Part shown: piece by piece, positions 2,979-26,824 of the stretch
How the letters are laid out: every line of letters starts with the position of its first letter
Position numbering within the stretch: the stretch's first letter is position 1
Program-made: the position numbers and the translations under genes
The notes under the pieces: model-generated
Seen by the model: only the letters and a program-made list of their open reading frames with translations
Database searches by the model: none
Told to the model about the DNA's origin: nothing
From: Candidatus Latescibacterota bacterium
GTDB lineage: Bacteria; Latescibacterota; UBA2968; UBA8231
Assembly (NCBI GenBank): GCA_963422735.1
Contig: OY730476.1
Location: 3,648,001 to 3,712,000 of the forward strand
Reading direction: 5' to 3'
Length of the DNA: 64,000 bases

Positions 2979-4814
2979 ATGCCGAAAGTTAGAATGTTCG
3001 TAGTGGTTGCTTGGCTGGGCATCTGCGTCGTCGGCCATGCCGCAGCTGAGGAAGGGGCATGGGAGGTGATACAGAAAATTCTCATAAGTACCAAGGATAT
3101 CGTCGTGCTCGATGGCACCAAGAAGGTGCCGCTGCGCTACGAGGGAGCAGAAAAGCCGACCCCCGGCGACTGGATGGTGCGCCACCTGCTGTCCGACCCC
3201 GAAAAACTCAACCCGTACACCTCCAACGATGCCGCTGCTAGCCGGGTGCTAGATCATATCTTTGAGAGTCTGCTCGACGCCGACCATGAGCCGCCGTACA
3301 ACTTGCGGGGGTGGGTGGCCGTCGGCTATCCAGAGGTTGCCGCGGACAAACTCACGTACACGTTTGAGTTACGCGACGGGGTTTACTTCTCAGACGGCAA
3401 GCCGCTGACGGCCGCGGACGTCGTCTTCAGCATGAAGGTCATCCACAACCCCCAAGTGCTAGCTCCGCATCTGCGCAACTACTATGCTACCGTCCAAGAT
3501 GTGCAGATCGTGGGGACTAACAAAGTCCGCTTCCTTTGCCGCGAGCCTTATTTCCGCAACGCTCTGATCTTGGGCGGCCTCGACATTCTGCCCAAGCATT
3601 TCTACGACCCGGAGGGGCTAATGGACCCAGTCGAGGTCCAGAGCTTGGTGGACGGCTCTTGGGAGGCGGGGCCGCACGAGGAACGGGTTGAGCGCTTTGC
3701 CGGACAATTCAACCAAAATTTCAACCGCAAGGTACTAGGCTCGGGGCCGTATATAATCGAAGATCCAGAGCGCGATTTGGTCACTCAGCAGAAGATCGTG
3801 CTGACGCGGGATGCAAACTACTGGGGTTGGGACGTGGAAGGGCTGCTGTCGCCCGGCTTTGTCGATAAGATCGTCTTTAACATCATCAACAATACAGACG
3901 CGGCGTTCATCGAGTTGACCAACGGCCACCTCGACTACCACAACCTGCGTCCTCTGGAGTTCAAGGAAAAGAGCTGGTCGGAAGACTTTAACCGCCGCTT
4001 CCTCAAGGGCGTTAGCTACGCCGGTGGCTATATGTACATAGGATGGAACAACAGTCATCCAATTTTTGGCGATAAGCGGGTGCGCCAAGCCATGACCTAT
4101 CTGACCGACCGCGAGGGCATGGTGGAGAACATTATGTTCGGCTTGGCCGAGACAGTAGAAGGGCCGATCCACAAGTTCCGCCCGGAGTACAACCACGACC
4201 TCGCTCCGTACACCTACGACCCCGACCGCGCCCTCGACCTGCTGGCGGAGGCTGGCTGGGCGGACGCCGATGAGGACGGCATTTTCGACAAGACCATTGA
4301 CGGGGAGTTGGTGCCATTTCGCTTTGAGATTTTGGTCAACTCGGGCAACCAGACCCGCAAAGACATCGCCCTGACTCTGCAATACGAGTTGCAGGATATC
4401 GGCATTGACTGCCAAGTGCGCGAGCTAGACTGGTCGATCTTTCTGCAAAAGGTCCGAGGCAAGGAATTCGACGCCATGGTGCTGGGCTGGACCGGTAGCC
4501 TGCGTTTTGCTCCCGACGGCTACCAAATCTGGCATTCCTCGCAGACAGTAGAGAACGGTTCCAACTCGGTGAGCTTCATAAACGCCGAGGTTGATCAAAT
4601 TTTGGAAGACTACCGCCGCGAGTTCGACATGGACAAGCGCATTGAACTCTACCGCCGCTTTCAGGAAATCCTGCACGAGGAACAGCCATATACCTTCATG
4701 TGGAAATCGCGCTCGCCCCAAGCCTATAGCCGGCGCTTCAGTGGCGTTACTTGGTATCCCCCCGGCGTCCGCTTGCAAGACTGGTGGGTCGCGCAGGAAG
4801 AGCAGATGTACTAA
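2979..4814 (+). CDS. Peptide/nickel ABC transporter substrate-binding protein (family 5, OppA/AppA-like)
   Basis: Signal peptide; DPEKLNP, YTFELRDGVYFSDGKPLTAADVVFS, GSGPY, DKRVRQA and LHEEQPY motifs. Confidence 0.93.
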   Translation: MPKVRMFVVVAWLGICVVGHAAAEEGAWEVIQKILISTKDIVVLDGTKKVPLRYEGAEKPTPGDWMVRHLLSDPEKLNPYTSNDAAASRVLDHIFESLLDADHEPPYNLRGWVAVGYPEVAADKLTYTFELRDGVYFSDGKPLTAADVVFSMKVIHNPQVLAPHLRNYYATVQDVQIVGTNKVRFLCREPYFRNALILGGLDILPKHFYDPEGLMDPVEVQSLVDGSWEAGPHEERVERFAGQFNQNFNRKVLGSGPYIIEDPERDLVTQQKIVLTRDANYWGWDVEGLLSPGFVDKIVFNIINNTDAAFIELTNGHLDYHNLRPLEFKEKSWSEDFNRRFLKGVSYAGGYMYIGWNNSHPIFGDKRVRQAMTYLTDREGMVENIMFGLAETVEGPIHKFRPEYNHDLAPYTYDPDRALDLLAEAGWADADEDGIFDKTIDGELVPFRFEILVNSGNQTRKDIALTLQYELQDIGIDCQVRELDWSIFLQKVRGKEFDAMVLGWTGSLRFAPDGYQIWHSSQTVENGSNSVSFINAEVDQILEDYRREFDMDKRIELYRRFQEILHEEQPYTFMWKSRSPQAYSRRFSGVTWYPPGVRLQDWWVAQEEQMY

Positions 4815-4828
4815 CTAAGGCGCTTTCT

Positions 4829-5245
4829 GTGTCCTCCGCAGACCTCCTCCGCTGGGAGAGCCTCCCCCTGCGCCGGGAGAAGCTAGCCAAATCAATACTG
4901 CTGGTCTTACTAATCGTCGCTTCCTCAGCGGCAGCGGCTTTTGGTTTTGAGCATTGGTTTTACGGAGTGTTTTCACTCGGAGCATTGACCGTCTCGCTGT
5001 CGCGCTATTTCTTTCCTACGCGCTACGCGCTCGACAGCGAAGGGGTCAGCAGCGAACACCTCGGCCTTAAACAGCGCCGTCCTTGGGCGGAATTCCATCG
5101 AGCAGACGAGTACCGAGATGGCATTTTTTTACATCCGTCTGTCCGTCCGGGTCGGCTGGATTCCTTTCGCGGCGTTTTTGTGCGCTTCGACCAAAACCGC
5201 GAAGAAGTTGTGCGTTTCGTCCGGTGCCATGTTCCGAATCAATAG
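4829..5245 (+). CDS. Hypothetical membrane protein (2 TM plus PH-like C-terminal domain)
   Basis: GTG after TAAGG; two hydrophobic helices followed by FFPTRYALDSEGV...RRPWAEF; closely packed between neighbours. Confidence 0.7.
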   Translation: MSSADLLRWESLPLRREKLAKSILLVLLIVASSAAAAFGFEHWFYGVFSLGALTVSLSRYFFPTRYALDSEGVSSEHLGLKQRRPWAEFHRADEYRDGIFLHPSVRPGRLDSFRGVFVRFDQNREEVVRFVRCHVPNQ

Positions 5246-5564
5246 CTTAAAAGCGCAGTGGCGGCATGCTTTTGCCCTCGAAGACCCAGAGTCGAGTTGG
5301 TCTGAGGACGAGTGTGCGCTCGCCGAGCGGCTGGCTGAGTTTATAGTACGTCGCCGCATGGGAGCGGCCGCGTCCATGGCGTTGGAGGCCTGCCGCCCCC
5401 TCAACTTTTTGGGCAGCCAAGCCCTGACCTTTTTGGCTCCGTTTGCCACGTTGGTCTTTTCGCGTGACGAGTACCAGCACTTTACGCGCATGTTGGAGCG
5501 ACGCCAGTGCATAGACCTGCTCGCGAAGGCCATTGCCCAGCGCGAAGGCCAAAAGCATGGATAA
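5229..5564 (+). CDS. Hypothetical protein (small, helical)
   Basis: ATG 5229 overlaps the upstream gene and the stop overlaps the glmL-like start; LEACRPLNFLGSQAL motif. Confidence 0.7.
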   Translation: MFRINSLKAQWRHAFALEDPESSWSEDECALAERLAEFIVRRRMGAAASMALEACRPLNFLGSQALTFLAPFATLVFSRDEYQHFTRMLERRQCIDLLAKAIAQREGQKHG

Positions 5565-7338
5565 CCTCAACGTAGTTATCGCTACGGACTGTGGTAGTAC
5601 GACGACCAAGGCGATCCTGATCGAAAAGAAGGACGAAGGGTATCGCCAGACCTTTCGCGGAGAGGCCCCAACCACGGTCGAGGCCCCCTTTGAAGACGTA
5701 ACCCGGGGAGTGCTCAATGCCATTCAAGAGGTCGAAGAGCTTTCTGGACGGCAAATCCTCGATGGCGAGCGGATTATCACTCCGGCAGACGGCGATGTTG
5801 GGGTCGATATCTACATCTCGACGAGCAGTGCCGGCGGTGGGTTGCAGATGGTGGTGGCCGGCGTGGTACTGGCGATGACCGGCGAGAGCGCACAGCGCTG
5901 TGCTTTGGGTGCCGGGGCAATCGTCATGGACGCGCTCGCTGCCAACGATGGGCGCTTGCCCCACGAAAAAATAGAGCGCATCCGCCAATTGCGTCCCGAT
6001 ATGGTGCTGCTGTCGGGCGGTACGGATGGCGGCACCGTCAGCCACGTGGTCGAACTGGCCGAATTCATCAGCGCCGCCGATCCCAAACCCCGCTTTGGCG
6101 CGGGTTTCAAGCTACCGGTTATTTTTGCAGGCAATGAGGACGCGCACGAGGAGGTCGAAAAGGCACTGGGGGGGAAGATGGCCCTGACCGTTACCGAGAA
6201 TATCCGCCCAGTGCTCGAAGAGGAAAATCTGGACCCGGCGCGGCACGTCATTCACGACCTCTTTCTCGAACATGTCATGGCGCAGGCACCTGGCTACCGC
6301 AAGCTGATGGGCTGGACCGGCGCGCCGATTATGCCGACGCCCGGGGCGGTGGGCCAGATCATGCAGACCATTGCCTGCCAGCAGGAGATCAACGTCGTCG
6401 GTGTGGATATCGGTGGGGCGACAACCGATGTGTTCAGCGTCTTCGACGGCGTGTTCAACCGCACGGTCAGTGCCAATCTCGGCATGTCCTATAGCGTCTC
6501 CAACGTGTTGGTCGAGGCCGGCCTCGACCACATCATGCGCTGGGTTCCTTTCGACATTGAGGAGGTCGACCTCCGAGACCGGATCAAAAACAAGATGATC
6601 CGCCCGACGACCATCCCGCAGCTAATGCAGGAATTGCAAGTTGAGCAAGCCATTGCCCGCGAGGCCCTGCGCCTAGCCTTTGATCAACATCGGGCGTTGG
6701 CGGTGGGATTGAAGGGGGTCCAGAGCAAGCGTACGCTGGCCGATGTCTTTGAGCAGAGTGCCACCGGCGAGAGTTTAGTCGAGATGATGACGCTGGACAT
6801 GCTAGTCGGCAGCGGCGGAGTGCTCTCGCATGCGCCCCGCCGCGAGCAGAGTTGCGCCATGCTCATAGATGCCTTCCAGCCCGAGGGCCTCACCCGCTTG
6901 GCGGTCGATAGCATCTTTATGATGCCCCACTTAGGGGTGCTCTCGACTGTTGACGAGCGGGCCGCCACCGAGGTTTTCGAGCGCGATTGCCTGATCTACT
7001 TGGGCACTTGTGTGGCCCCCGTCGGCGAAGGTAAGGACGGCGAGGTCTGCCTCCAATACGAAATGCAACTGCCCAGCGAGCGTCGAACCGGCCAGTTGCA
7101 GGTCGGCCAGCTACAGTGGATGCCCTTGGCCGATGGCGAGGGGGTCGAAATCTCACTCCAGCCAGCGCGGCGTTGGGATGTGGGTGCTGGCCCGGGGCAG
7201 GCCCTAAATGCGCGGGTGTTCGGCGGGGTCGTGGGGCTAGTGCTGGACGGCCGCGGGCGGCCCATCCAGATGGCGACAGACCGCGACCGCCGTCGTCAGA
7301 TAAGCGACTGGCAGCAGGCGTTAAACTTATACGAGTAG
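5557..7338 (+). CDS. GlmL/MutL(glutamate mutase)-family ASKHA ATPase with C-terminal extension
   Basis: Phosphate-1 motif TDCGSTTTKA, SSAGGGL, PDMVLLSGGTDGG, MPTPGAV, phosphate-2 motif VDIGGATTDVFS, RTVSANLGM, adenosine motif GSGGVLSH. Confidence 0.85.
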   Translation: MDNLNVVIATDCGSTTTKAILIEKKDEGYRQTFRGEAPTTVEAPFEDVTRGVLNAIQEVEELSGRQILDGERIITPADGDVGVDIYISTSSAGGGLQMVVAGVVLAMTGESAQRCALGAGAIVMDALAANDGRLPHEKIERIRQLRPDMVLLSGGTDGGTVSHVVELAEFISAADPKPRFGAGFKLPVIFAGNEDAHEEVEKALGGKMALTVTENIRPVLEEENLDPARHVIHDLFLEHVMAQAPGYRKLMGWTGAPIMPTPGAVGQIMQTIACQQEINVVGVDIGGATTDVFSVFDGVFNRTVSANLGMSYSVSNVLVEAGLDHIMRWVPFDIEEVDLRDRIKNKMIRPTTIPQLMQELQVEQAIAREALRLAFDQHRALAVGLKGVQSKRTLADVFEQSATGESLVEMMTLDMLVGSGGVLSHAPRREQSCAMLIDAFQPEGLTRLAVDSIFMMPHLGVLSTVDERAATEVFERDCLIYLGTCVAPVGEGKDGEVCLQYEMQLPSERRTGQLQVGQLQWMPLADGEGVEISLQPARRWDVGAGPGQALNARVFGGVVGLVLDGRGRPIQMATDRDRRRQISDWQQALNLYE

Positions 7339-7341
7339 CTC

Positions 7342-8457
7342 ATGGCCCACGCTTATACTCCTGGACTGCGCGTGACGCAATATGCAGTCGTCCACAAAGA
7401 GCGGCGTTTGCCCCTCAAAGGCGAAATTGTCGTCGAGCGCGGTCAAGTGGTGCGACGAAACCAAGTTGTGGCCCGCACCGAACTGCTGGGCGAGGTGGCG
7501 ATTCTTAACTTGGTAAACCGCTTGGGCATTTCGCCGCAAGAGCTATCCGGCTACATGCTCAAAAAAGAGGGCGACCGAGTCGAAGCCGGCGAGCCACTCG
7601 CCGAAACCAAGCCGTTTATTCGATGGTTCAAGACCACCATTGAATCCCCGGTCAGCGGCACAGTCGAGAGCATTTCGCCGGTGACGGGCCAGGTGATACT
7701 AAGGCAAGCTCCTAAGCCTGTCGAAGTCTTGGCGTACGTCGATGGAGTCGTAGAGGAAATTTTTGTCGAAGAGGGCATACGCGTCGCAGCACGAGGTGCT
7801 TATATTCAGGGCATTTTTGGCGTGGGGGGTGAGTGCTGGGGTGCGCTGCACTTGGCGGTTGCGGCCCCGGATGCCATTGTCGGGCCGCTAGGCCCGGAAG
7901 TTGCGGGCAAGATTGTAGTGGTCGGCAGTCTGATTAGCGCGGAGACTGTGGAACAGGCCCGGCAGGCAGGTGCTGTGGGGTTGATCGGCGGCGGCCTGCG
8001 CGACCGCGACTTGCGCGACCTGCTCGGCCGCGATTTGGGCGTGGCCATCACCGGGACCGAGCAAATCGGCCTGACAGTGGTGGCGACCGAAGGCTTCGGC
8101 CGCGTCGCCATGGCCCGCAAGACCTTTGATATTCTGCGAGCCTGTGCCGGCATGGATGCGTCCATGGCTGGCGCGACCCAGATCCGTGCTGGCGTATTGC
8201 GGCCGGAGATTATCGTCCCCACAGCCGCTGACAAAGAGGAAGAAAAAGTGCGGCCGAGTGCTGGCGGGTTGCAGATGGGCGATTTGTTACGAGTGATTCG
8301 GATGCCTTATTTTGGGCGGATTGGGCGCGTCCGCGACTTGCCGACCGAGTTGTGCAAGGTGGAGTCCGGGGCATGGGTGCGGGTATTGGCAGTGGAGTTT
8401 GAAGGCGGGGAACAGGCGGTAGTGCCGAGGGCGAACGTAGAGCTGATTGAGGAATAA
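7342..8457 (+). CDS. Hypothetical soluble protein with barrel-sandwich-hybrid (biotinyl-lipoyl-like) segments and a C-terminal KOW motif
   Basis: KKEGDRVEAGEPLAE...SPVSGTVES hybrid motif; GDLLRVIRMPYFGRIGRV KOW-like motif; starts 3 bp after the glmL-like stop. Confidence 0.75.
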   Translation: MAHAYTPGLRVTQYAVVHKERRLPLKGEIVVERGQVVRRNQVVARTELLGEVAILNLVNRLGISPQELSGYMLKKEGDRVEAGEPLAETKPFIRWFKTTIESPVSGTVESISPVTGQVILRQAPKPVEVLAYVDGVVEEIFVEEGIRVAARGAYIQGIFGVGGECWGALHLAVAAPDAIVGPLGPEVAGKIVVVGSLISAETVEQARQAGAVGLIGGGLRDRDLRDLLGRDLGVAITGTEQIGLTVVATEGFGRVAMARKTFDILRACAGMDASMAGATQIRAGVLRPEIIVPTAADKEEEKVRPSAGGLQMGDLLRVIRMPYFGRIGRVRDLPTELCKVESGAWVRVLAVEFEGGEQAVVPRANVELIEE

Positions 8458-8461
8458 AGGC

Positions 8462-9706
8462 ATGAGAGTAAAAAACTGGGTATCTGCATTAGTCTTGGCT
8501 TGGCCGTTGGCGAGCGCGGCGGAGAATGCGGAACAGGCACTCGGCGCGTTGCTGGCACACCCTATGCCGCCGATCGAGGTCCAAGCCTTCGACACGCCCA
8601 ACGACGACGGGGGTAGCATTACGCTGACTTGGCCGCGAGATCGTCAGGTCGGTGAAAATGCGATGTATCAGGTCGCCATCGCCGATTCGCCCAGCGGGCC
8701 TTTTCGCGTCGTGGCTGAGGTAGCGGCAACGGAGAATTTGATGTCTGAGGTGCCAGCGCTCTTTGGACACGGGGACGATCTGGAGAATCACCACTATGTC
8801 AACGTCGAGGAATTCGCCGGCGCGGGCGGGAAGACGCCGCTAGAAGACGGCAAGACGTATTACTTTCACGTCGATGTGCGGTCGGCCGGGGGTGCAATTC
8901 GCGGCAAAGTGATCGTCAACGCCGAGTCCGCAGGCAATTTTTTTAATCGCGCCAAGGCCAACAATCTGGTATTGTGCCTCGTGTTCTCAGGGCTTATCAT
9001 GGGCTACATTGGCATTGCGCGGCGGCGCGAACTCAAGATCCGCCGCATCGCCGGGCTAGAGGCACTCGACGAGGCACTGGGGCGGGCGACCGAGATGGGC
9101 AAGCCGGTGCTTTTCATTCACGGCCTGCGCGGCATGGACTCGATATCAACCATTGCAGCGGTCAATATCTTGGGACGGGTCGCACGGCGTACTGCCGAAT
9201 ACGACACCGCGCTGCGAGTGGTGGCCCCAGATCCGGTGGTTATGTCTGTGAGTCAGGAGACGATGAAAGCCTCGTATATAGAGGCGGGACGGCCCGATGC
9301 CTTCAATCCCGACCACGTCTTCATCGCCGGTACTGAGCAGTTTAGCTATGCGGCAGCGGTCGAGGGCCTTATGATACGAGACCGGCCGGCGGCTCACATT
9401 ATGATGGGGTACTTCTACGCTGAGTCGCTGTTGTTGGCCGAGACGGGTTCGACGACCGGGGCGATTCAGATCGCCGGCACCGATGCCTTCACCCAGTTGC
9501 CATTCTTTATTACTACTTGCGACTATACCCTGCTCGGTGAAGAACTCTACGCAGCCAGTGCTTATCTATCAGGTGAGCCGAGGATGCTGGGATCCCTCAA
9601 AGGCCAAGACGCCGGTAAGGTCCTTATTTTGGCCGCCTTGGTGTTGGGCGCGTTTTTGGCGGTTTGGGATCTGCCCCAACTAACCCACTTCTTTACTCCT
9701 TATTGA
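8462..9706 (+). CDS. Membrane protein with signal peptide, FN3-like domain and DUF6754-like domain
   Basis: DTPNDDGGSITLTW FN3-like start; TM followed by IRRIAGLEALDEALGRATEMGKPV, GYFYAESLLLAE and LPFFITTCDYTLLGEELYAASAY; C-terminal TM. Confidence 0.75.
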   Translation: MRVKNWVSALVLAWPLASAAENAEQALGALLAHPMPPIEVQAFDTPNDDGGSITLTWPRDRQVGENAMYQVAIADSPSGPFRVVAEVAATENLMSEVPALFGHGDDLENHHYVNVEEFAGAGGKTPLEDGKTYYFHVDVRSAGGAIRGKVIVNAESAGNFFNRAKANNLVLCLVFSGLIMGYIGIARRRELKIRRIAGLEALDEALGRATEMGKPVLFIHGLRGMDSISTIAAVNILGRVARRTAEYDTALRVVAPDPVVMSVSQETMKASYIEAGRPDAFNPDHVFIAGTEQFSYAAAVEGLMIRDRPAAHIMMGYFYAESLLLAETGSTTGAIQIAGTDAFTQLPFFITTCDYTLLGEELYAASAYLSGEPRMLGSLKGQDAGKVLILAALVLGAFLAVWDLPQLTHFFTPY

Positions 9707-9715
9707 GGAGGGGCC

Positions 9716-10372
9716 ATGTTGTTTTTTAGCCGGACCTTACCACTGGCCGTCGCCTTAGTCTTTGGCCTGTTGGGCATTGCCATTTACTACATACCGCACG
9801 GCAATGCACAGGGCTTCGAGCGAGAAATGGCGAAGTGGGTGCGCATTATCTTCGCGTTTTCCTATCTGATCGGGCTCTACAGCCTGCTCAACTTGCACTG
9901 GCAGCGCATCCGCCAGCACGTCGCTGGTTGGGGCTACAGCTTCGTCGCCATCGCCAGCTTTGCGGTGATGATGTTCTTCGTCGCGTACAATGACGGGCAC
10001 GGCCCTTTTGCCGCTCAGGCCGAGGCCGGAGGCTACAATTGGCTCTTCAAGTACGTCCACCTGCCCTGTTCGGGGACCATGTTCTCGATCTTGGCTTTTT
10101 TCATTGCGTCGGCCGCGTACCGCACTTTTCGCGCCCGCACGTTCGAGGCCGCGCTTTTGCTAATTGCAGCCGTGATCGTCATGCTAGGCCGGGTGCCCAT
10201 CGGCCAGGAGCTGTCGGAGTTTTTTCCACAGGCGACCGATTGGCTGTTGAACGTGCCCAATTTGGCGGCCAAGCGCGGCATCCTGCTCGGGGTTTCGCTA
10301 GGGGCGATTGCGACCTCGCTGCGGATCATCTTCGGCATTGAGCGCGCTTACTTGGGTGGGGGAGACGAGTGA
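9716..10372 (+). CDS. Hypothetical polytopic membrane protein (~6 TM)
   Basis: GAGGAGG RBS; multiple hydrophobic helices; TMFSILAFFIASAAYRTFRAR and LRIIFGIER motifs. Confidence 0.8.
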   Translation: MLFFSRTLPLAVALVFGLLGIAIYYIPHGNAQGFEREMAKWVRIIFAFSYLIGLYSLLNLHWQRIRQHVAGWGYSFVAIASFAVMMFFVAYNDGHGPFAAQAEAGGYNWLFKYVHLPCSGTMFSILAFFIASAAYRTFRARTFEAALLLIAAVIVMLGRVPIGQELSEFFPQATDWLLNVPNLAAKRGILLGVSLGAIATSLRIIFGIERAYLGGGDE

Positions 10373-11187
10373 TGCAGATCGATCGCCGCATCATCTTCGC
10401 GTTGGTTTTTATCGGGGTGGCCGTGCCGCTATTGGCCGGGAAGCATCTGCCGATCACGCCGACCCGGGAAGTGGAGGCCGTGTACGAACAGCTCGAAAAG
10501 CACGCTGCCGGGCAAGTGGTGCTGGTCTCCTTTTCGTACGGTGCCAGCACGGCCCCGGAGATGCAGCCCATGGCGCGGGCCGTGTTGCGCCACGCCTTCC
10601 GCCGAGACCTCAAGGTGGTTGCCATTTGCCTGTGGCCGGAAGCGACCGGCTTGGCCCAAGAGGTGCTCGACGAGATGGCGGCTGAATTCGACTTGAGGTA
10701 CGGGGTGGATTACGCCTTTATGGGCTATAAGCCCGGGACCTCTAGCGTCATCCTCAACATGGGGCACGACGTACACGGGGCGTTCCCGGAGGACAATTGG
10801 GGTGCGGAGATCGGGGAGTTGGAACTGACGCGGCGATTGCACTCGCTGAGCGACTTCGATCTCGTCTTTGACTTAGGGGCCGGGGATTCGATTGAGTATT
10901 GGTGGATACCCTACGGGCAGGAGAAGTACGGCTTCCCCTTTGTCGCCGGCTGCACGGCGGTGATGGCCCCAGACCTCTACCCGTTTTTTAATTCCGGCCA
11001 ACTCGTCGGCCTGCTCGGGGGCTTGGCCGGTGCCGCCGAATACGAGACTCTGATCGGCCGCCCGGACAAGGCCAACAAGGGCATGTTCGCCCAGTCGGTG
11101 ACGCACTTGATCATTGTCGCTTTCGTGATTTTTGGCAATATCGCTTACTTCGCCAGTCGTCGGGACCGATCGCAGCAGGGGGTCTAA
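10369..11187 (+). CDS. Hypothetical membrane-anchored alpha/beta protein (N- and C-terminal TM)
   Basis: GTGA start/stop overlap; APEMQPM, YGVDYAFMGYKPG and SGQLVGLLGGLAGAAEYE motifs. Confidence 0.8.
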   Translation: MMQIDRRIIFALVFIGVAVPLLAGKHLPITPTREVEAVYEQLEKHAAGQVVLVSFSYGASTAPEMQPMARAVLRHAFRRDLKVVAICLWPEATGLAQEVLDEMAAEFDLRYGVDYAFMGYKPGTSSVILNMGHDVHGAFPEDNWGAEIGELELTRRLHSLSDFDLVFDLGAGDSIEYWWIPYGQEKYGFPFVAGCTAVMAPDLYPFFNSGQLVGLLGGLAGAAEYETLIGRPDKANKGMFAQSVTHLIIVAFVIFGNIAYFASRRDRSQQGV

Positions 11188-11190
11188 GCC

Positions 11191-11904
11191 GTGCGCGATA
11201 CCTATGTCTTTCTAGGCTTTCTCTTGCTGTTTGTCGCTGTCAATATCGGCTTAGTAGTCAACGGTACCTTGGCGGCGGACTGGACGGGCTTGGGCATCAT
11301 CACGGCGGCGGGGATGACCTTGGCACTCTATAGCTTCCTCTACAAGGACAACCCGCTTTTCAAGTTTGCCGAGCACATCTTCGTCGGCGTGGCAGCAGCC
11401 TACATATTCGGCCAGAACTGGTACCCGACGATCTACGGCGAGATTATCGCCGAATGGACCAACCCAGGGGAAGGGGAGACGCCCGATTGGTGGCTTTTGG
11501 CCCCAACGGTGCTCGGGCTCTTGATGTTGACGCGCTTTTCGCTGCGCTTTGGTTGGCTCAGCCGCTATGCTTTTGCATTTTTTGTCGGGCTCGGGGCCGG
11601 CCTGACGATTCCCCGCTATATTTCTTCCTTTATTTTGGCCCAAGTTGAGCCTACATTACAACCACTGACTTGGAGCTGGGACGGGCTCAATTTGCTGATC
11701 GTCTTGGTAGGGGTCGTCGGGGTATTGGTTTATTTCTTCTTTTCTGTCGAGCACACCGGCGCGGCGGGCCACATCTCCAAGGTGGGGATATGGTTTTTGA
11801 TGGTCTCGTTTGGGGCTTCATTTGGTTATACCATTATGGCGAGGATCTCGCTATTGATCGGGCGCGTGACCTTTCTCTTAGAAGATTGGTTGCACCTGAT
11901 GTGA
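11191..11904 (+). CDS. Hypothetical polytopic membrane protein (~7 TM)
   Basis: YSFLYKDNPLFKFAEHIFVG, YFFFSVEH and FGASFGYTIMARISLLIGR motifs; strongly hydrophobic. Confidence 0.8.
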   Translation: MRDTYVFLGFLLLFVAVNIGLVVNGTLAADWTGLGIITAAGMTLALYSFLYKDNPLFKFAEHIFVGVAAAYIFGQNWYPTIYGEIIAEWTNPGEGETPDWWLLAPTVLGLLMLTRFSLRFGWLSRYAFAFFVGLGAGLTIPRYISSFILAQVEPTLQPLTWSWDGLNLLIVLVGVVGVLVYFFFSVEHTGAAGHISKVGIWFLMVSFGASFGYTIMARISLLIGRVTFLLEDWLHLM

Positions 11905-11945
11905 AGCGGTATTGAGAACTACCCTATATATATAAGGAGGGATAT

Positions 11946-14900
11946 ATGACCAAGTTTGCAGGCGTTTTTCGCGCCCTGACCGCACTTGGCTTCTTGCTCG
12001 CGCTGAGCTTGGCTCCGGCCGAGGCCAGCACAGGCGGCAAAATCGCCGGTGTCGTCAAGGATGCCACTACCGGGAATGGGTTGCCCCATGCCAATGTCGT
12101 GGTGGTGGATACCAAACTGGGGACTACGGCGGACGAAAAGGGCCGCTTTTTTATTCTCAACGTGCCGGCGGGCACCTATACCCTCAAGGCCACGTATATC
12201 GGCTACGCGGATTATACTGTCGAGGATGTGCGGGTCTCCGCCGACCTGACCACGAATCTCGACATCGACCTGACTTCTTCGGATATCCAGGTCGAGGAGG
12301 TGATAATCCGCGCCGAGCGGCCGATCATCGACAAAAACGCCACCAACGCGGTGCGCATTGTCGGGGCCGAGGACATAGAGATACTGCCGTTCAGAGGCGT
12401 CAGCCAAGTTCTGTCCCTGCAGGCCGGCGTGGTTGATGACGAGGGTGCTTTGCACATCCGCGGCTCTCGCAGCGACGAAATTGGCTATTACGTTGATGGG
12501 GCCAGCGTCCGCAACGTAATCACCGGCAGCAGTGCTGTGGGCCTGATCGACGAAGCCCTAGAGGAAATTCAGCTACAGGCCGGCGGCTTCAACGCCGAGT
12601 ACGGCGGGGCCAACGCCGGCATCGTCTTGCAGGAACTGCGCACCGGGGGCGGCGATTGGGATTTCAAGGTCGTTGCTGAGTCGGACAATTTCACTTCCGA
12701 CTTTGAGGAGCGCTTCGGCACGTACTCCTATGGCTATTCCAACCAAGTGATAACGGCCGGCGGCCCGGTTGCGGGCAAACAAAATATCCGTGCCTTTCTC
12801 GCCGGTCAGCGGTGGAGCCGGGACTACCGACCGACCTTCTGGTCGGGGTTCGAATTCGAGAATCTGGTCGATACGGGCAACCGCCAGGGCCGCGTACATT
12901 GGGCCGAGGACGAGGAAGGCAATCCCATCCCAGACACGGTCGAGCGGCTGGAGGTCAAACCGGGCAATATCCCGCACACTGGCAGCCAGTTTCTCGACTT
13001 CAACGGCACCCTGCACTTCAACTACAATCCCATCCAGTTTCGGGTCACGGGCCTGCACTCCACCGGGGACCGAGAACTCAACATCAACCCCATCAAAAAC
13101 ATCCTCAACCAAAAGCGCCTCAACGAGAGGACGCAATCTTCGAGTTTGGTCAACTTAAAGGCCATCCACCTGCTCGACCCGAGCATGTTCTACGAGATGA
13201 ACGTCAGCCTCTACAATCAGGGGCGCGAGAGTTTCGACGGGGTTTTCAAAGATCGATGGTGGGTTTACAACGACAGCGTGGCCGTGCAGCGCGCCTTGGA
13301 AGGCGGCCCGGAGTACACCCCCTATACGACCAACGGCTCGCTGCCCGAGCCTTACGACTTGAGCGGATTTCCGTTCAACCGCCCGGGTTCGCCTACCAAC
13401 TCTGCGTCGGGGAACAGCACCGGTGCTTGGTACACCAAGGAACAAGACCGCTATTGGGGCTTGGCTGGCAGCATTACCAAGCAGACCGAGGTCCACCAAC
13501 TCAAGGCTGGTTTTGATTATCAGATGTGGACGTCGCGCCGCTACTCCATTTTCAGCCGATCGATTCGCTTGGGGATCAAAGCGAGGTACCCCAAGCTAGA
13601 CGAAGTGTACCAGCGGTACTACCGCGACGAGCTCGCCGAGGGCGAGATCCTCGACGAGCTGATCGAGCTCGCCGAGGGCCTGCCTGATGGCGAAGGCAGC
13701 CTAGAAGACCTCGAGAGATTCCTCCGCACCACCAGTGCCGGCGACTTCTATGGCTACGACGAATTCGGTCGCTCCATTGACTCGTCCGACGACCCGCTGC
13801 AAGACCCGCGCAAGCCCGTAGTCGGCTCAGCCTACATCCAGGACAAGATCGAATACAACGATCTGATCATCAACGCCGGGTTGCGCTTGGATTACTTTGA
13901 TGCGGCGAGCTGGCGCTTTGTCGATCAGGCCGCTCCGGTGTTAGACGACAAGGCGGCGACCGTGGTGATCGCCGACGAGAAAGGCACCTACATGGAGAAG
14001 ACGCCGGCATACACGGAGATCAGCCCGCGGCTGGGGTTCTCGTTCCCGGTGTCGGACCTGACGGTCTTCCACGTGCAGTACGGGCGCTTCTCGCAGATGC
14101 CGCGGATGCGCGACATGTACACTGGCGGGGCGCGGCTGGAACTCGAATTGGGCGGGCAAAACTTCATCCCTACGCCCACAGCCTTTGACGTCGAGCCGGT
14201 GCGCACGACCCAGTACGAGATCGGCTTTGAGCGTCAGTTCGCCGATTTTGCCTCGTTCGACGTGACCAGTTTTTATCGCGACATCAAGGGTCAGCTCCAG
14301 ATCCGGCGCCAAGATGTGTCGGCCAACGCGGTGAAAGCCGGCTCGTTCACTTACTTGCAGAACGGCGATTTCGCCACGACCAAGGGCATTGAGTTCCAGT
14401 TCAAGGTGCGGCGGATCAACCGCTTGCAAGCCGAGTTGAACTACACCCTGTCCGACGCCCGCGGCACCGGTTCGACCCTGACATCGGCGCAGTCGGGCGT
14501 GGAGAACGACACCGACGTGCCGACGATCATCTCCCCGCTCGACTTCAACCAGACGCACCGCGGCTCCCTGTTTTTGGACTACCGTTTTGCCGACAACGAG
14601 GCGAACTCCTTCCTCCGCAGCTTGGGGGCCAACCTGCTGGCACGCTTTACCAGCGGCTACAACTTTACACTCGTGGAGGGTTCCATCGGCCAGCGGGGGC
14701 CGGAAGAAGGCGGCATCCTCGCCAGCGACGACCCACGCTCGCGCAAGCCGGTTGAGTCCATCAACCGCTCTTCGACGCCGTGGACCTTCCAGACCAACCT
14801 GCGGGTTGACAAGGGCTTTTCGCTGATGGGGGTCAATGCGCGGATTTACACGTACGTGCAGAACTTGTTCAACCGCCAGAACGTAATTAACGTGTATGGC

Positions 14901-15104
14901 CGAACCGGCAACGACAAGGACGACGGCTTTTTGACGAACCCGGATATGAGCCAGCAGATTGTCGAGGCCAGCGGCGGCTTGCAGTACCAGCATCTCTACG
15001 AGGCGATCAACTTGCTCAACCGCCAGCACTACTGGTCCACCGAAGGCGGCGACATTTACGACATCCCGCGGCAGATACGTTTCGGGCTACAATTCGACTT
15101 CTAG
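11946..15104 (+). CDS. TonB-dependent receptor with N-terminal carboxypeptidase-regulatory-like domain
   Basis: AAGGAGG RBS; signal peptide; GKIAGVVKD...LNVPAGTY; plug LHIRGSRSDEIGYYVDG; GGFNAEYG; SPRLGFSFP; C-terminal PRQIRFGLQFDF. Confidence 0.93.
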   Translation: MTKFAGVFRALTALGFLLALSLAPAEASTGGKIAGVVKDATTGNGLPHANVVVVDTKLGTTADEKGRFFILNVPAGTYTLKATYIGYADYTVEDVRVSADLTTNLDIDLTSSDIQVEEVIIRAERPIIDKNATNAVRIVGAEDIEILPFRGVSQVLSLQAGVVDDEGALHIRGSRSDEIGYYVDGASVRNVITGSSAVGLIDEALEEIQLQAGGFNAEYGGANAGIVLQELRTGGGDWDFKVVAESDNFTSDFEERFGTYSYGYSNQVITAGGPVAGKQNIRAFLAGQRWSRDYRPTFWSGFEFENLVDTGNRQGRVHWAEDEEGNPIPDTVERLEVKPGNIPHTGSQFLDFNGTLHFNYNPIQFRVTGLHSTGDRELNINPIKNILNQKRLNERTQSSSLVNLKAIHLLDPSMFYEMNVSLYNQGRESFDGVFKDRWWVYNDSVAVQRALEGGPEYTPYTTNGSLPEPYDLSGFPFNRPGSPTNSASGNSTGAWYTKEQDRYWGLAGSITKQTEVHQLKAGFDYQMWTSRRYSIFSRSIRLGIKARYPKLDEVYQRYYRDELAEGEILDELIELAEGLPDGEGSLEDLERFLRTTSAGDFYGYDEFGRSIDSSDDPLQDPRKPVVGSAYIQDKIEYNDLIINAGLRLDYFDAASWRFVDQAAPVLDDKAATVVIADEKGTYMEKTPAYTEISPRLGFSFPVSDLTVFHVQYGRFSQMPRMRDMYTGGARLELELGGQNFIPTPTAFDVEPVRTTQYEIGFERQFADFASFDVTSFYRDIKGQLQIRRQDVSANAVKAGSFTYLQNGDFATTKGIEFQFKVRRINRLQAELNYTLSDARGTGSTLTSAQSGVENDTDVPTIISPLDFNQTHRGSLFLDYRFADNEANSFLRSLGANLLARFTSGYNFTLVEGSIGQRGPEEGGILASDDPRSRKPVESINRSSTPWTFQTNLRVDKGFSLMGVNARIYTYVQNLFNRQNVINVYGRTGNDKDDGFLTNPDMSQQIVEASGGLQYQHLYEAINLLNRQHYWSTEGGDIYDIPRQIRFGLQFDF

Positions 15105-15126
15105 CCGGTTAACAAGCGAGGACACC

Positions 15127-18100
15127 ATGAGAAAACTCATTTTTACAATGGCAGCGGTGATCGGGCTGGGAGCTGGCCCGGGGGAAGCACGCGAGACGCT
15201 CTACGGCCGTGCGGGCAAGATCCTCCAAGACGAAGACGTCGTCGTCTCGACTGAGTGGACGATGCTCAACATCAGCAACATGGCCATGTGGATCCAGAGC
15301 GATGGCGAGTCGGCTAACAACCCGATCAATGGCAACTCAGGAGTGACTTTTCCGCGCTCGATCGATCAAGTCATTTACCAAGATGGCCTGATTTGGGGCG
15401 GGCGGGTCCTCGACGGCAACGACCAAGTGCTGCGCGTTGGCGGCCAGACTTATGCCGTTGGCACGGTCCCGGGCGTCATTGAGTCGAAGGGCGTGGCTCA
15501 AGATAGCGATACGGCGCGTCTGTACCGAATTCGCCGCGACTATGCGACCGCTGATTTGCGGCTCGACGCTTCCGAGGTCCTCAACAAGGGCCTGAGCGAA
15601 GTCACCGTCGCCGATGAGGAGGCCGTGCGCACCCAATACGAGCGCGACTGGATGGAGTGGCCAGCCGAGTTGGGCGCACCCTTTTACGACAACGACGGAG
15701 ACGGGCGGTACGACCCCGCGATCGACGAGCCGGGGCTGGCCAGTGCCGACCAAGTGATCTGGTTCGCAATCAACGACTTGGATCAAGGGTCTGTCGCCAG
15801 CCTCTACGGCTCTCTGCCCATTGGCATGGAGACGCAGGTTACGCTGTGGGGCTACGCCCGCACCGACGCGCTGGGCGACGCGATTTTCAAGAAGTACAAG
15901 ATTATTTACAAGGGCACCGAGAGTACGCCGGATACGGCGCGCGTTGAGGACATGTACTTGGCCCAATGGTCAGATCCCGATTTGGGTGACTTTGGCGACG
16001 ACTTTGCCGGGGCCGACATCGACCTGAGTTTGGGCTACGTGTACAACTCGATCGAGGAAGATTCGCACTATGCGCCGTTAGGCTTGGCGCCACCGGCGGC
16101 GGGCTACGACTTTTTGCAAGGCCCGATCGTGCCGGTGTACCAGCTCGACGAAGAGGGGGCGATTGCCGTGGATGAAGAGGGCAACCCGCTGCTCGACGAG
16201 AGCGCGGTGGCGATCTTCAACGACGGCTTTAGGCCCGGCTACAAGAACTTGCCGATGACCGCTTTCGTGTACTTCGCGGCTGGTTCGTCGATCTCCGACC
16301 CGGACTTGGAGGAGTACAGCGGGACCTTACAGTGGTACAACTTGTTGCAAGGCTTCCAGCCGCAGGCCGACATTGATAACCCGGTACCGTACACCAATCC
16401 GCTGACCAACGAGGACACCAAGTTCACGCTCGACGGCGACCCAACGCGGGCCACCGGCTGGAACGACGGGGTGCCGCTGCCGGCCGGCGACCGGCGCATA
16501 GTAATGGCGACCGGCCCGTTTGAAATGGCGTTGGGCGATACTCAGGAAGTGGTAGTCGCGCTCTTGGGCGCGATCAGTACGGACCGCTTGCGCAGCGTCT
16601 CCAAACTCAAGTTCACCGACCAGTTCGTGCAGGACGCTTACAACAGCTTCTTTCAGGTGCCCAAGCCGCCGGCCCAGCCCAATGTCCGCTTGGTCGAGCT
16701 CGACAAAACAATCCTCTTGGACTGGGGCTGGGACGACGATTCGATTCAGGCCACCGAAGGCGAGGGTTCGCCCGGCTTTGACTTTGAAGGCTATAACCTC
16801 TATCAGTTGCCCTCGGCCGAAGCCACGCTCTCTCAAGGGGTCAAGGTGGCGACCTTTGACATCGAAAATGGCGTGACCACGATCTTGGGCATTGACCTCG
16901 ACGAGGCATCGGGCGTGGTGCTCGATGTGCCCCGGCAGATTGGCACTGACTTCGGAATCAAGCGCAATATCAAGATCACCCGGGACTACATCCGCAGTGG
17001 TCCGCTGGTCAACGGCCAGCGGTACTACTTCACGGTGACGGCTTACAACCGCGCCACCTCCGAAGAAGCCGCTATCACTGCGCTGGAGAGTGCGTCGCAG
17101 AACATAGTTTGCGTACCGCAGGAGCCGCCGCCGGGCATCCGCTATCTGAGCAAGCCTGGCGATGTGATTAGCGGTCAGCATGTCGCCGGCGCCAGCGACG
17201 GAACGGTCTCAGTCTCTGTGGTTGATCCGACGAGTACCACCGGTCACGACTACGCAGTCGAATACACCACCGACGCCGACGGCAATACGGTCTGGAATCT
17301 GGTTGATAAGACTAGCGGTCAGACTCTGTTGGCCGACCAGACCGATCAGGCCGGCACGGCCTTCTACGTCGGCTCCGCCGGCATTGAGGTCGCCGTCTCC
17401 GGTCCACCCGCTGGCATGAAGAGTTGGGCTGGTCCGGCGATGCCGTTCGAGGCTTGGAAGGCTTCGCCCGAGGCGGTCGACTTGACGGGCGACGGCCAGA
17501 TCAATGCCGCTGACTTTGCCCAAGCCGTCGATCATGCCAGCGACACTCGCTGGTTCACTTGGGCCGGCGGCTCGGAAGGTTGGGGGGCCGAGGGCTTCCA
17601 AGGCGCGATGACCGGCGATCCCAACCACCAGTGGTTCGCGCCGACGACGGTGCCGTCGGACAGGTTGCGCACGGTGGAGTTGCGGTTTACCGACGTCATC
17701 GAGGAGGATGGAGAAGACCAATACAAACCGGTGGACCTCAACAACGAGAACGTGTCGTGGGCCTATCGCTACCTGCGCGGTGCCGGAGGGGAGCCGCCGC
17801 CGCCCGAGGATCTGACGACGACGCAGAATCCTTGGGACTTCGGCAAGTACATTATCAATACCGAAGGCCCGGGCGTCTATGTCTATCAGGAACGCAATCC
17901 GATCGCGCTTTCAGCTTGGGACATCGAGAGCGATCCGCCGCGTCGCTTGGAAGTGGCCTTCCTCGAAAACAACCAGCCCGGCGGTCTAGTCAACGGCGTC
18001 TATGGTCCACCTTGGTACAACGTGGCGAGCAATGTCGCCAGTTCAGGGCCGCGCGAGTGGCTGTTCATCTTTGACCTCGACTACACCGAGCCGAACCAAG

Positions 18101-18648
18101 GCGAGAACAGCGACATCTTGTTGCGGAACGGTTTGATCTACGATGGGACAGAAGGAGAAGAACACCTGCCCTTCATGTGGATCATTTTCTCCGAGCGCCG
18201 ACGTGAGGATGACTTCCCATCGGATGGCGATTCCTTCCTGCTGGTCGCCAACCACGTCAACACCCCAGCCGACCGCTTCTCATTTACGGTTCAGGGGTCG
18301 GAAAGCAACGACGCTTACCTAGCCGAGGACATCGAGAAGATCAACGTCTTCCCCAATCCCTACCTCGGCGTCAACGAAGCGGAGACCAGCCGTTACAGCC
18401 ACTTCGTGACCTTCAGCCACCTGCCGCCCAAGGCGAATGTTCACATCTTCGACATGAGCGGTACGCTGGTGCGCACGATTGAGAAGGACGACCCCTCGCA
18501 GTTCATGCGCTGGGACCTGCAAAACCACAATGAGCTACCGGTGGCCAGCGGCATGTACATTGCCCATATCGAGCTGCCGGGGACCGGCATGAGCCGCGTC
18601 CTCAAGCTGGCCGTCATCCAGGAGGAGCAGTTCCTAGAAAACTTCTGA
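15127..18648 (+). CDS. Large acidic secreted protein with T9SS type-A/FlgD-Ig-like C-terminal sorting domain
   Basis: Signal peptide MRKLIF...; WSDPDLG, GPFEMALGDTQEVVVA and DFEGYNLY motifs; CTD INVFPNPY...IFDMSGTLVRTI...WDLQN...VASGMYIAHI...KLAVI. Confidence 0.8.
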   Translation: MRKLIFTMAAVIGLGAGPGEARETLYGRAGKILQDEDVVVSTEWTMLNISNMAMWIQSDGESANNPINGNSGVTFPRSIDQVIYQDGLIWGGRVLDGNDQVLRVGGQTYAVGTVPGVIESKGVAQDSDTARLYRIRRDYATADLRLDASEVLNKGLSEVTVADEEAVRTQYERDWMEWPAELGAPFYDNDGDGRYDPAIDEPGLASADQVIWFAINDLDQGSVASLYGSLPIGMETQVTLWGYARTDALGDAIFKKYKIIYKGTESTPDTARVEDMYLAQWSDPDLGDFGDDFAGADIDLSLGYVYNSIEEDSHYAPLGLAPPAAGYDFLQGPIVPVYQLDEEGAIAVDEEGNPLLDESAVAIFNDGFRPGYKNLPMTAFVYFAAGSSISDPDLEEYSGTLQWYNLLQGFQPQADIDNPVPYTNPLTNEDTKFTLDGDPTRATGWNDGVPLPAGDRRIVMATGPFEMALGDTQEVVVALLGAISTDRLRSVSKLKFTDQFVQDAYNSFFQVPKPPAQPNVRLVELDKTILLDWGWDDDSIQATEGEGSPGFDFEGYNLYQLPSAEATLSQGVKVATFDIENGVTTILGIDLDEASGVVLDVPRQIGTDFGIKRNIKITRDYIRSGPLVNGQRYYFTVTAYNRATSEEAAITALESASQNIVCVPQEPPPGIRYLSKPGDVISGQHVAGASDGTVSVSVVDPTSTTGHDYAVEYTTDADGNTVWNLVDKTSGQTLLADQTDQAGTAFYVGSAGIEVAVSGPPAGMKSWAGPAMPFEAWKASPEAVDLTGDGQINAADFAQAVDHASDTRWFTWAGGSEGWGAEGFQGAMTGDPNHQWFAPTTVPSDRLRTVELRFTDVIEEDGEDQYKPVDLNNENVSWAYRYLRGAGGEPPPPEDLTTTQNPWDFGKYIINTEGPGVYVYQERNPIALSAWDIESDPPRRLEVAFLENNQPGGLVNGVYGPPWYNVASNVASSGPREWLFIFDLDYTEPNQGENSDILLRNGLIYDGTEGEEHLPFMWIIFSERRREDDFPSDGDSFLLVANHVNTPADRFSFTVQGSESNDAYLAEDIEKINVFPNPYLGVNEAETSRYSHFVTFSHLPPKANVHIFDMSGTLVRTIEKDDPSQFMRWDLQNHNELPVASGMYIAHIELPGTGMSRVLKLAVIQEEQFLENF

Positions 18649-18685
18649 GTGAGGCCGCCCGCTCATAGAAACAGGAGACCATTCC

Positions 18686-26406: not shown

Positions 26407-26824
26407 GGCCAAGAGCTACTGGGGGGTTGCGGTTCCCAATCGCGGCGATTTGCGCCGATTCGGACTCGTGCTGGCGGCGTTGCTGGCATTGCTAGGCGGC
26501 TATCTGTGGTACGTGGAAGCTATAGGCTTCGCTCAGCTTGCACACGCGGCCTCGCTGGTGTTGCTCGGGGCCGGATTGGCGCTGCCCGTTGCGCTGACGC
26601 CGATCTACTTTCCCTATATGTGGCTGGCGAGGATTGTGGCCTTTGTCAATATCCACCTGCTCTTAGGGCTTATTTTCTACACGCTTTTTACGCTGATCGG
26701 CCTTAGCATGCGCCTTTTGGGGCGCGATCCGCTCGATCGCAAAATCACTCCCGATGAGGAAAGTTACTGGCAGCGCCGGGCCTCTTCTCTATTTTCCCGC
26801 GACCATTATCGCAAGCGCTTTTGA
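26399..26824 (+). CDS. SxtJ-family small membrane protein
   Basis: DLRRFGL N-terminus, three TM helices, GRDPL...SYW...Y.KRF C-terminus; overlaps the carbamoyltransferase stop. Confidence 0.8.
   Translation: MTEAKSYWGVAVPNRGDLRRFGLVLAALLALLGGYLWYVEAIGFAQLAHAASLVLLGAGLALPVALTPIYFPYMWLARIVAFVNIHLLLGLIFYTLFTLIGLSMRLLGRDPLDRKITPDEESYWQRRASSLFSRDHYRKRF

Follow-up and report, generated by a model that had tools for sequence, protein, structure and literature searches.

An orphan GlmL-like ATPase encoded with a conserved set of membrane proteins in Latescibacterota, and its putative role in peptide or amino-acid assimilation

We describe a compact gene module found in a 64,000-nucleotide stretch of the genome of a Candidatus Latescibacterota bacterium (assembly GCA_963422735.1, contig OY730476.1, positions 3,648,001 to 3,712,000 of the forward strand), hereafter the window. 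The genome is a single contig of 4.95 Mb with a completeness of 95%. The module encodes an ATPase of the family usually labeled 'MutL/GlmL', a soluble partner protein, four membrane proteins and two small proteins. Our interpretation, which we offer tentatively, is that this region is the Latescibacterota copy of a seven-gene system of bacteria and archaeal-looking contigs, extended here by one further gene, and that the system acts in peptide and amino-acid assimilation, at a step of transport or processing. Judged from sequence comparisons, the system is widespread and highly conserved, and we regard it as categorically new, with a putative function. The first-pass annotation, which was made from the sequence alone, had stated that it knew of no functional characterization; consistent with this, a literature search that did not cover subscription journals found no paper or functional study on the system.

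The module consists of eight plus-strand open reading frames (ORFs) that fill window positions 4829-11904, all of which were confirmed by an ORF check. In order, these are gA (4829..5245), a small membrane protein of 138 amino acids (aa); gB (5229..5564), a small soluble protein of 111 aa; gC (5557..7338), an ATPase of the ASKHA (actin/Hsp70/sugar-kinase) fold of 593 aa; gD (7342..8457), a soluble partner of 371 aa with three domains; gE (8462..9706), a DUF6754 membrane protein of 414 aa; gF (9716..10372), a polytopic membrane protein of 218 aa with approximately six transmembrane segments and no family; gG (10369..11187), a protein of 272 aa with a transmembrane helix at each terminus and an alpha/beta domain of approximately 200 aa between them; and gH (11191..11904), a polytopic membrane protein of 237 aa with 7-8 hydrophobic segments and no family. 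With the likeliest start codons, the successive junctions from gA to gH are -17, -8, +3, +4, +9, -4 and +3 bases, and the description of eight tightly packed or overlapping genes is thus accurate. The transmembrane counts for gA, gF, gG and gH come from a crude hydropathy scan. Therefore, the earlier label of gA as a protein with two transmembrane segments is weakly founded: the scan confirms a hydrophobic stretch, but as one broad segment that can be read as a hairpin.

Evidence that these genes belong together comes from their co-inheritance. Among 80 related loci, which share ancestry, 70 carry the full set of eight genes in colinear order, so the arrangement is not a matter of chance. Identity across these loci ranges from 54 to 96% for the ATPase and from 48 to 93% for the membrane proteins, and gF is found in all 80 and gH in 79. 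Among 151 genomes sampled from the phylum (ATPase called at E <= 1e-20; the genomes are kin, and counts are not independent events), the ATPase and DUF6754 each occur in 126 and occur jointly in 124. The ATPase is present alone in two genomes (G146 and G029) and DUF6754 alone in two others (G026 and G031), and these four assemblies are 57-87% complete. Neither gene occurs in 23 genomes, including one entire family (0 of 13). The first-pass annotation had inferred a tie between the ATPase and the genes of a multi-subunit membrane complex, and had suggested a survey of co-occurrence as a check. Both the colinearity and the joint presence bear out that tie, and the sequences support the view that the ATPase is genetically linked to a multi-subunit membrane set.

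Evidence of breadth beyond the phylum comes from 74 unlabeled metagenome loci, which were retrieved from metagenome contigs with the natural gC-gD fusion P0063 as query (42-54% identical to it) and are consistent with the same co-occurrence. The full quartet of membrane genes (gE to gH) lies near gC-gD in 32 of these loci, and at least one membrane gene in 45. The other 29 have no quartet genes, and 21 of them are shorter than 6.5 kb; the long loci of this kind are L103, L108, L125, L143, L153, L167, L169 and L174. The position of the quartet relative to gC-gD varies, being upstream, downstream or divergent, and some loci carry two to three quartets. Proximity that persists through such reshuffling fits selection for co-inheritance, and would not be predicted by inherited gene order alone. 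Many of the metagenome loci carry archaeal-type neighbors, such as an archaeal AdoMet synthetase, a FEN1-type nuclease and an Lhr helicase. In ten loci (L111, L117, L121, L122, L126, L137, L139, L153, L156 and L157), two gC-gD pairs are arranged convergently, tail to tail; these loci often have TldD/PmbA and Lhr helicase genes on one side and one or two quartets on the other.

The two small proteins differ in their distribution. Neither gA nor gB matches a Pfam family, and each has a match in 71 of the 80 related loci (for gA, by tblastn, at 34-87% identity). A word-index protein search returned 34 relatives of gA, of which the closest is 92% identical and the weakest listed are approximately 44-54% identical. 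However, gA has no match in the 74 metagenome loci, whereas a gB-like cluster (15 members by phmmer) occurs in 23 of them, often between gD and gE. Because gB-like genes recur in the metagenome loci and gA does not, the conserved unit is gB to gH. The proposed eight-gene unit thus holds for close relatives, but the broadly conserved core has seven genes, to which gA is a lineage-specific accessory. In 30 of the 74 metagenome loci, the gene for a small DUF5518-like membrane protein of approximately 130 aa lies just upstream of gC in divergent orientation (for example, L141:2071-2463, minus strand), and it may be the counterpart of gA.

The ATPase gC matches the Pfam family MutL (PF13941, E 2.8e-126) with 422.4 bits (gathering threshold 27), over positions 1-450 of the 450-position profile and residues 15-486 of a 601-aa frame. 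A C-terminal extension of about 110 aa lies beyond the PF13941 region. Weak matches were also found to Hydantoinase_A (E 1.6e-6) and Hydant_A_N (E 0.0024), and a comparison with PDB sequences gave no matches at E 0.01. For the conserved residues, we use the motif names of the ASKHA superfamily literature. The earlier claim that the phosphate-1, phosphate-2 and adenosine motifs are intact is correct for the window protein, which has all of the phosphate-1 residues (D11, G13, S14, T15, T16 and K18), D284, G286-T290 (the GGATT core) and D291 of the phosphate-2 motif, and G418, G420 and G421 of the adenosine motif. Among 116 homologues, the phosphate-1 residues, the GGATT core and the three adenosine-motif glycines are at least 98% conserved, as are 167 of the 593 positions overall. 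Mean per-position identity in the same alignment is approximately 0.70 in the core and 0.43 in the C-terminal extension, and such values indicate that the ATPase core is under strong constraint.

Conservation does not extend to every phosphate-2 residue. The first aspartate of this motif and the aspartate seven residues on (gC positions 284 and 291) are kept in 52 of the 116 homologues, namely all 45 Latescibacterota-type sequences and seven metagenome loci. In the remaining 64, all of which belong to the metagenome set (L102-L173), they are replaced by glycine and asparagine. Elsewhere, the Gly/Asn proteins remain approximately 70% conserved. This variant may reflect a different catalytic arrangement or a form that does not hydrolyze ATP, and its existence cautions against assuming uniform ATP chemistry across the family. 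A separate peculiarity is seen in three genomes (G061, G110 and G132), in which the ATPase aligns in two pieces (2-297 and 299-592) within one frame of 659-673 aa, which implies that one genus carries an insertion of approximately 25 aa close to residue 298.

The family name and the usual database label would make gC a genuine GlmL, acting as the reactivase of a B12-dependent mutase whose genes lie elsewhere on the chromosome. This explanation is extremely improbable and is already contradicted by several observations. The scores of gC fall below every NCBIfam GlmL cutoff: 231.9 bits against the GlmL equivalog NF040745 (cutoff 475), 210.9 bits against Or-4 (NF040744, cutoff 600) and 161.4 bits against glmL_fam (TIGR01319, cutoff 204.05). 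In agreement with the first-pass annotation, the window has no mutase genes, and the result extends to the 95% complete genome, in which gC is present in a single copy and PF06368 (Met_asp_mut_E, or glmE) has no match. The two PF02310 (B12-binding) matches in the genome are both far from the module, and neither protein is a mutase subunit: one is a corrinoid protein beside a URO-D-like methyltransferase, and the other is a MerR/CarH-like regulator. Across genomes, the ATPase gene is distributed with DUF6754 and not with a mutase. Moreover, a genome of the same class as the window genome (G135) holds both types of PF13941 protein. Its long, orphan-type ATPase lies approximately 6 kb from DUF6754. 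Its canonical paralogue (L175:7435-9293; 470 aa, E 1.6e-159), which is approximately 35% identical to the gC-type ATPase, directly follows a gene for a 149-aa B12-binding protein. These data indicate that the gC branch is unrelated to B12 mutase and that the system is not an accessory factor of such an enzyme. The 'glutamate mutase L' annotation is therefore wrong for this branch, and it is propagating in databases. G135 offers a natural contrast of the two PF13941 subfamilies side by side; a gene for a 619-aa protein without a Pfam family comes after the canonical gene in L175.

The partner protein gD has three domains and belongs to a family for which a library clustered at the 50% level contains 2367 representatives (E <= 1e-3; clustering by identity). 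Its predicted structure, built on 67 diverse sequences, has a predicted local distance difference test score (pLDDT) of 92 and a predicted template-modeling score of 0.83. Residues 51-123 of the model form a barrel-sandwich hybrid that resembles NqrA (4u9o_A, Z 7.8, 28% identity) and RnfC (8ahx_C, Z 7.5) in VIA-align comparisons. Residues 152-294 form a swivelling beta/beta/alpha domain, for which the same tool found phosphotransferase system (PTS) Enzyme I (2wqd_A, Z 9.3, root-mean-square deviation 2.7, 107 aligned), rifampin phosphotransferase (5hv1_A, Z 8.8), 5t12_A (Z 7.9), RraA (Z 8.6) and the small subunit of aconitase X (Z 7.7). Residues 307-371 are modeled as a barrel of the KOW/SH3-like type (Z 8-9). 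As the tool itself notes, Z values of this size show fold and not function, and the swivelling-domain match in particular is one of fold only, because RraA and aconitase X (Z 7.7-8.6) also match. In sequence searches, gD matches RnfC_N with 27.1 bits (cutoff 25.6), NQRA_N with 22.5 bits (cutoff 25) and Biotin_lipoyl weakly. The only PDB sequence match is RnfC 7zc6_C (E 0.0057), which agrees with the fold matches of the barrel domain; a profile search of PDB with gD gave nothing significant. Foldseek returned domain-level matches or matches with low template-modeling scores only.

Two carrier functions were considered for gD and rejected. The lysine that would be modified in the hairpin of a lipoyl or biotinyl carrier varies among the 67 gD sequences (K, R, S, G and others). 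In the swivelling domains of enzymes that use phosphoenolpyruvate (PEP), phosphate is carried by a histidine. The same 67 sequences contain no histidine among the invariant or nearly invariant columns, and gD has no match to PF00391. Thus, gD is neither a lipoyl/biotinyl carrier nor a phosphohistidine carrier. The residues that are invariant are R21, Q156, E250, T279, R282, R287, N365 and E367, as well as several glycines. Natural fusions of gC and gD occur (P0031, P0063 and L101), and they argue that the two proteins act as one working unit.

Of the membrane proteins, gE is the best defined. It matches DUF6754 (PF20539, E 1.5e-110) with 368.8 bits (gathering threshold 27) over profile positions 3-256 of 257. 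Its model (pLDDT 91) has a signal or anchor segment, a periplasmic FN3 domain (residues 35-159, Z approximately 10), a transmembrane helix, a cytoplasmic Rossmann-like domain and a C-terminal transmembrane helix. Archaeal-looking versions of gE, at approximately 260 aa, have no FN3 domain. For the cytoplasmic domain (residues 196-371), KtrC (6i8v_A, Z 10.3), PGK, LpxB, sirtuins and TrkA-N match about equally well (Z 9-10). For gE, as for gD, the Foldseek matches are at the level of domains or have low template-modeling scores. Hydropathy analysis predicts six segments in gF, one N-terminal and one C-terminal segment in gG, and 7-8 in gH. The flanking charges suggest that the alpha/beta domain of gG is periplasmic, and the clusters that an ESM Atlas search with gG retrieved were all unnamed and of the gG family itself. 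A complex prediction combining gD with gE residues 190-378 scored 0.00; controls were not run, and the result weighs neither way. The possibility that gE/gG and gF/gH are paralogous pairs, which would make the quartet a duplicated two-gene module, was rejected at the depth of the alignments used (24-25 sequences; hhalign probabilities 0.5% and 0.3%). Pfam searches detected neither ABC_tran nor BPD_transp_1 in gA to gH, and no cofactor-binding motif was recognized in any module subunit.

The proposed function is drawn from neighboring genes. In the window, a gene for an OppA-like periplasmic peptide-binding protein (SBP_bac_5, PF00496, E 1.5e-73; 2979..4814, plus strand) ends 14 bases before gA. 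An OppA orthologue is directly upstream of gA in 31 of the 80 related loci, and lies between gC and gD in nine. These nine belong to one sister family of the phylum and have the gene order lipoate-ligase-like gene, gA, gB, gC, OppA, OppB, OppC, gD, gE, gF, gG, gH, OppD, OppF, which intersperses the module with a complete OppABCDF set. The window has its own OppB (20899-22194; 431 aa) and OppC (22195-23241; 348 aa), which were recognized by BPD_transp_1, BPD_transp_1_N and OppC_N matches and are orthologous to the interleaved Opp genes. They lie on the plus strand, like the module, and 9 kb past gH, and this OppB is 69% identical to the interleaved OppB of a sister-family locus (L070). A spurious longer ORF at 21753-23096 overlaps both genes and masks them in a longest-ORF scan. 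OppD and OppF orthologues are encoded 0.7 Mb away, and the genome has 15 SBP_bac_5 and 10 oligo_HPY matches in total. The idea of an orphan oligopeptide-binding protein that feeds a 'non-ABC transporter', which the first-pass annotation had advanced, therefore fails: cognate OppB and OppC are present at 20899-23241. The window genes and the nine interleaved sets imply that the module works beside an importer of the ATP-binding cassette (ABC) type and not in its place, and the module is seen to accompany the Opp permease in two different arrangements.

Other neighbors point in a similar direction. A class IV aminotransferase is encoded nearby in 35 of the 80 related loci, and the metagenome loci include TldD/PmbA peptidase pairs (19/74), class I/II aminotransferases (11/74), arginine-deiminase-like proteins (7/74), M20 peptidases (4/74) and amidohydrolases (4/74), as well as an OppF-like gene directly after gC in L125. 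Within this phylum, the suggested link to peptide or amino-acid use is retained, and the association appears moderate and lineage dependent. Downstream of the module, the window region 11946-19714 (plus strand) encodes a SusC/RagA-type TonB-dependent outer-membrane receptor (11946..15104; CarbopepD_reg_2, Plug and TIGR04056), whose gene begins 41 bases beyond gH. Next come genes for a protein of 1229 aa, with a weak FlgD_ig-type match at its C terminus, and for a PorV-like protein. This looks like an outer-membrane nutrient-capture set situated between the module and OppBC. It is found in 26-29 of the 80 related loci, and the receptor, downstream of the module in 29 of them, is a neighbor in only part of the phylum. 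Further along the window, at 24583-26824 (plus strand), a carbamoyltransferase gene (607 aa) overlaps an SxtJ-like gene (141 aa) by a few bases; this pair is unrelated to the module.

The module divides into a cytoplasmic unit, which consists of gC, its constant partner gD and the small gB, and a membrane unit of gE, gF, gG and gH, in which the Rossmann-like domain of gE faces the cytoplasm and, in bacteria, its FN3 domain faces the periplasm. We propose that, by analogy with B12-enzyme reactivases, binding and hydrolysis of ATP by gC could alter the grip of the gD swivelling domain on a partner, probably the cytoplasmic domain of gE, and this change would be passed on to the polytopic proteins gF and gH. 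The most likely outcome would be a transport or processing step in peptide or amino-acid assimilation beside the Opp importer, as the neighboring genes suggest. That the ATPase powers the complex is a point that we infer. A bolder form of the proposal holds that the system is a new class of ATP-driven transporter, distinct from ABC, P-type and rotary systems, in which gC and gD, as a reactivase-like clamp, drive a four-subunit translocator that takes in peptides or solutes derived from amino acids. Such a class would be sufficiently old or mobile for many bacterial phyla and archaea to share it at an ATPase identity of approximately 70%. We consider this bolder form unlikely.

Several observations weigh against a transport or processing role in assimilation. 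The matches of the gE cytoplasmic domain are all of a generic Rossmann-like kind, and gF, gG and gH (40, 44 and 45 members) have no consistent Pfam family at E <= 1, nor did their profiles find a solved relative in PDB. The loss of the phosphate-2 aspartate to glycine in 64 of 116 homologues calls universal ATP hydrolysis in the family into question. Some recurrent neighbors are unrelated to the theme, including DUF483-like (18/74), GNAT (15/74) and Lhr helicase (11/74) genes in the metagenome loci. Similarly, in 15 of the 80 related loci the module is preceded by fabH, fabD, fabG, fabF, the RNase III gene (rnc) and a lipoate-protein-ligase-like gene (for example, L058:343-6230). Archaeal-looking loci have no clear Opp gene nearby, only weak or general ABC matches and one weak OppA match (L108). 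Because related loci share ancestry, neighbor counts overstate independence. Finally, scans of the locus for promoters and terminators gave signals no better than those of shuffled sequences, and operon limits are consequently undefined. Contigs from sequencing runs of apparent RNA type do cover the module: those of run X6, whose type is uncertain, span all of it (window 4700-12000) at >=99% identity, and a metatranscriptome contig of 4640 bases that is approximately 92% identical spans 4700-7406. We did not count these as expression evidence, because contigs cannot show transcription, and stretches left uncovered in the RNA runs carry no weight either. Several X6 contigs end in loose, A-rich tails, like those of libraries with added poly(A).

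Three other explanations place the module in different processes. The periplasmic FN3 domain of gE and the putatively periplasmic domain of gG would suit a machine for cell-envelope biogenesis or export, in which the quartet, driven by the ATPase unit, would assemble a lipid, a protein or a surface polymer or move it outward. The gene order of the window, in which a TonB-dependent receptor, the 1229-aa FlgD_ig-type protein and a PorV-like gene follow the module, can be read in the same way, as can the lipoate-ligase-like gene after fabH-fabD-fabG-fabF-rnc upstream in 15 of the 80 loci. We nonetheless find this explanation doubtful. Only 26-29 of the 80 loci have the receptor, surface-protein and PorV genes beside the module, no subunit matches a glycosyltransferase, flippase or polymerase family in Pfam, and the absence of FN3 from the approximately 260-aa archaeal-looking gE means that a Gram-negative outer-membrane export role could not be common to those versions. 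A more modest role would be maintenance, with the ATPase and swivelling unit opening, resetting or exchanging a part of the quartet or of the Opp importer, in the manner of a reactivase or chaperone, and moving no solute. In favor of this role, every named relative of gC serves a B12 enzyme as an accessory factor, reactivases are built from the same pairing of an ASKHA ATPase and a swivelling domain, and in nine of the 80 loci the genes of a whole ABC importer are interspersed with those of the module. However, maintenance of this kind seems quite unlikely to us, since no cofactor-binding motif was recognized in any subunit, most lineages have no Opp genes near the module, and similarity in sequence to a solved reactivase was lacking in the searches made (for gC, no PDB matches at E 0.01; for the gD profile, nothing significant).

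In the remaining explanation, the module would use ATP for a chemical reaction on a small membrane-associated substrate: a lactam- or amide-type compound, delivered or removed by the quartet, would be phosphorylated or opened by gC, as in group translocation or metabolite repair. It draws on the weak Hydantoinase_A and Hydant_A_N matches of gC, which are to hydantoinase/oxoprolinase-type ASKHA relatives, on the recurrence of amidohydrolase, arginine-deiminase-like and peptidase genes beside the module, and on the charged and polar residues that are invariant in gD (R21, Q156, E250, T279, R282, R287, N365 and E367). We judge it improbable: the module has no HyuB-type partner, a phosphate-carrying histidine is not conserved among the 67 gD sequences, and the first phosphate-2 aspartate is missing from 64 of 116 gC homologues.

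The significance of the system lies partly in its distribution and partly in what it may do. The gene set occurs in most of the phylum and in archaeal-looking contigs, with an ATPase core that is approximately 70% identical between distant lineages. Beyond DUF6754 and the misleading 'MutL/GlmL' label, it has no named Pfam family or solved structure that can be recognized by sequence. If the complex does move or process peptides or amino acids, it would represent a new principle of energy coupling in membrane biology, and genome-based reconstructions of the nutrition of many uncultured heterotrophs, in Latescibacterota and others, would change.

Comparison with known systems helps to define the module. 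With the Opp/Dpp-type ABC importers, it has in common a genomic neighborhood, to the point of interleaving in one family, and a division into a membrane part and a cytoplasmic ATP-binding part. However, the module subunits lack ABC_tran and BPD_transp_1, and a complete Opp set coexists with them. With GlmL/MutL (NF040745) and Or-4 (NF040744), gC has in common the PF13941 family, the ASKHA fold and the phosphate-1, phosphate-2 and adenosine motifs, but it differs in its scores below the cutoffs, its C-terminal extension, which makes it about 120 aa longer, the absence of a B12 partner from the genome, its constant proximity to gD and its linkage to DUF6754. The PEP-utilizing enzymes PTS Enzyme I and rifampin phosphotransferase have the swivelling fold seen in gD residues 152-294 together with a conserved histidine, whereas gD lacks this histidine and any match to the Pfam PEP-utilizers family. 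RnfC and NqrA have an N-terminal barrel-sandwich hybrid domain in common with gD (RnfC_N above its cutoff; Z 7.5-7.8). In contrast to those proteins, gD has no flavin- or NADH-binding or iron-sulfur matches, and the translations show no cysteine in gH and a single cysteine in gF. An Rnf/Nqr-like redox complex was accordingly rejected: only the N-terminal barrel of gD is held in common, and neither the membrane subunits nor other members of the module match an Rnf or Nqr family.

A further parallel is with the reactivases of B12 enzymes such as glycerol and diol dehydratases. As described in the part of PMC7674605 that concerns glycerol dehydratase reactivase, the alpha subunit of this protein has both an Hsp70-like ATPase domain and a swivelling domain, and hydrolysis of ATP releases the beta subunit from the swivelling domain (PDB 1NBW). 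No sequence similarity between gC-gD and reactivases was detected, and reactivase chains were not among the 50 matches listed in the gD fold searches, which were to other domains. The parallel is put forward as a resemblance in architecture and not as tested homology. In the module, a separate protein, fused in some cases, carries the swivelling domain, and the client is presumed to be a membrane complex instead of a soluble B12 enzyme. The ingredients, as far as that account of the reactivase describes them, are nevertheless similar, namely the gC ATPase, the gD swivelling domain and the gE Rossmann-like domain, and the three-domain anatomy of gD together with the reactivase parallel provides a concrete and testable hypothesis.

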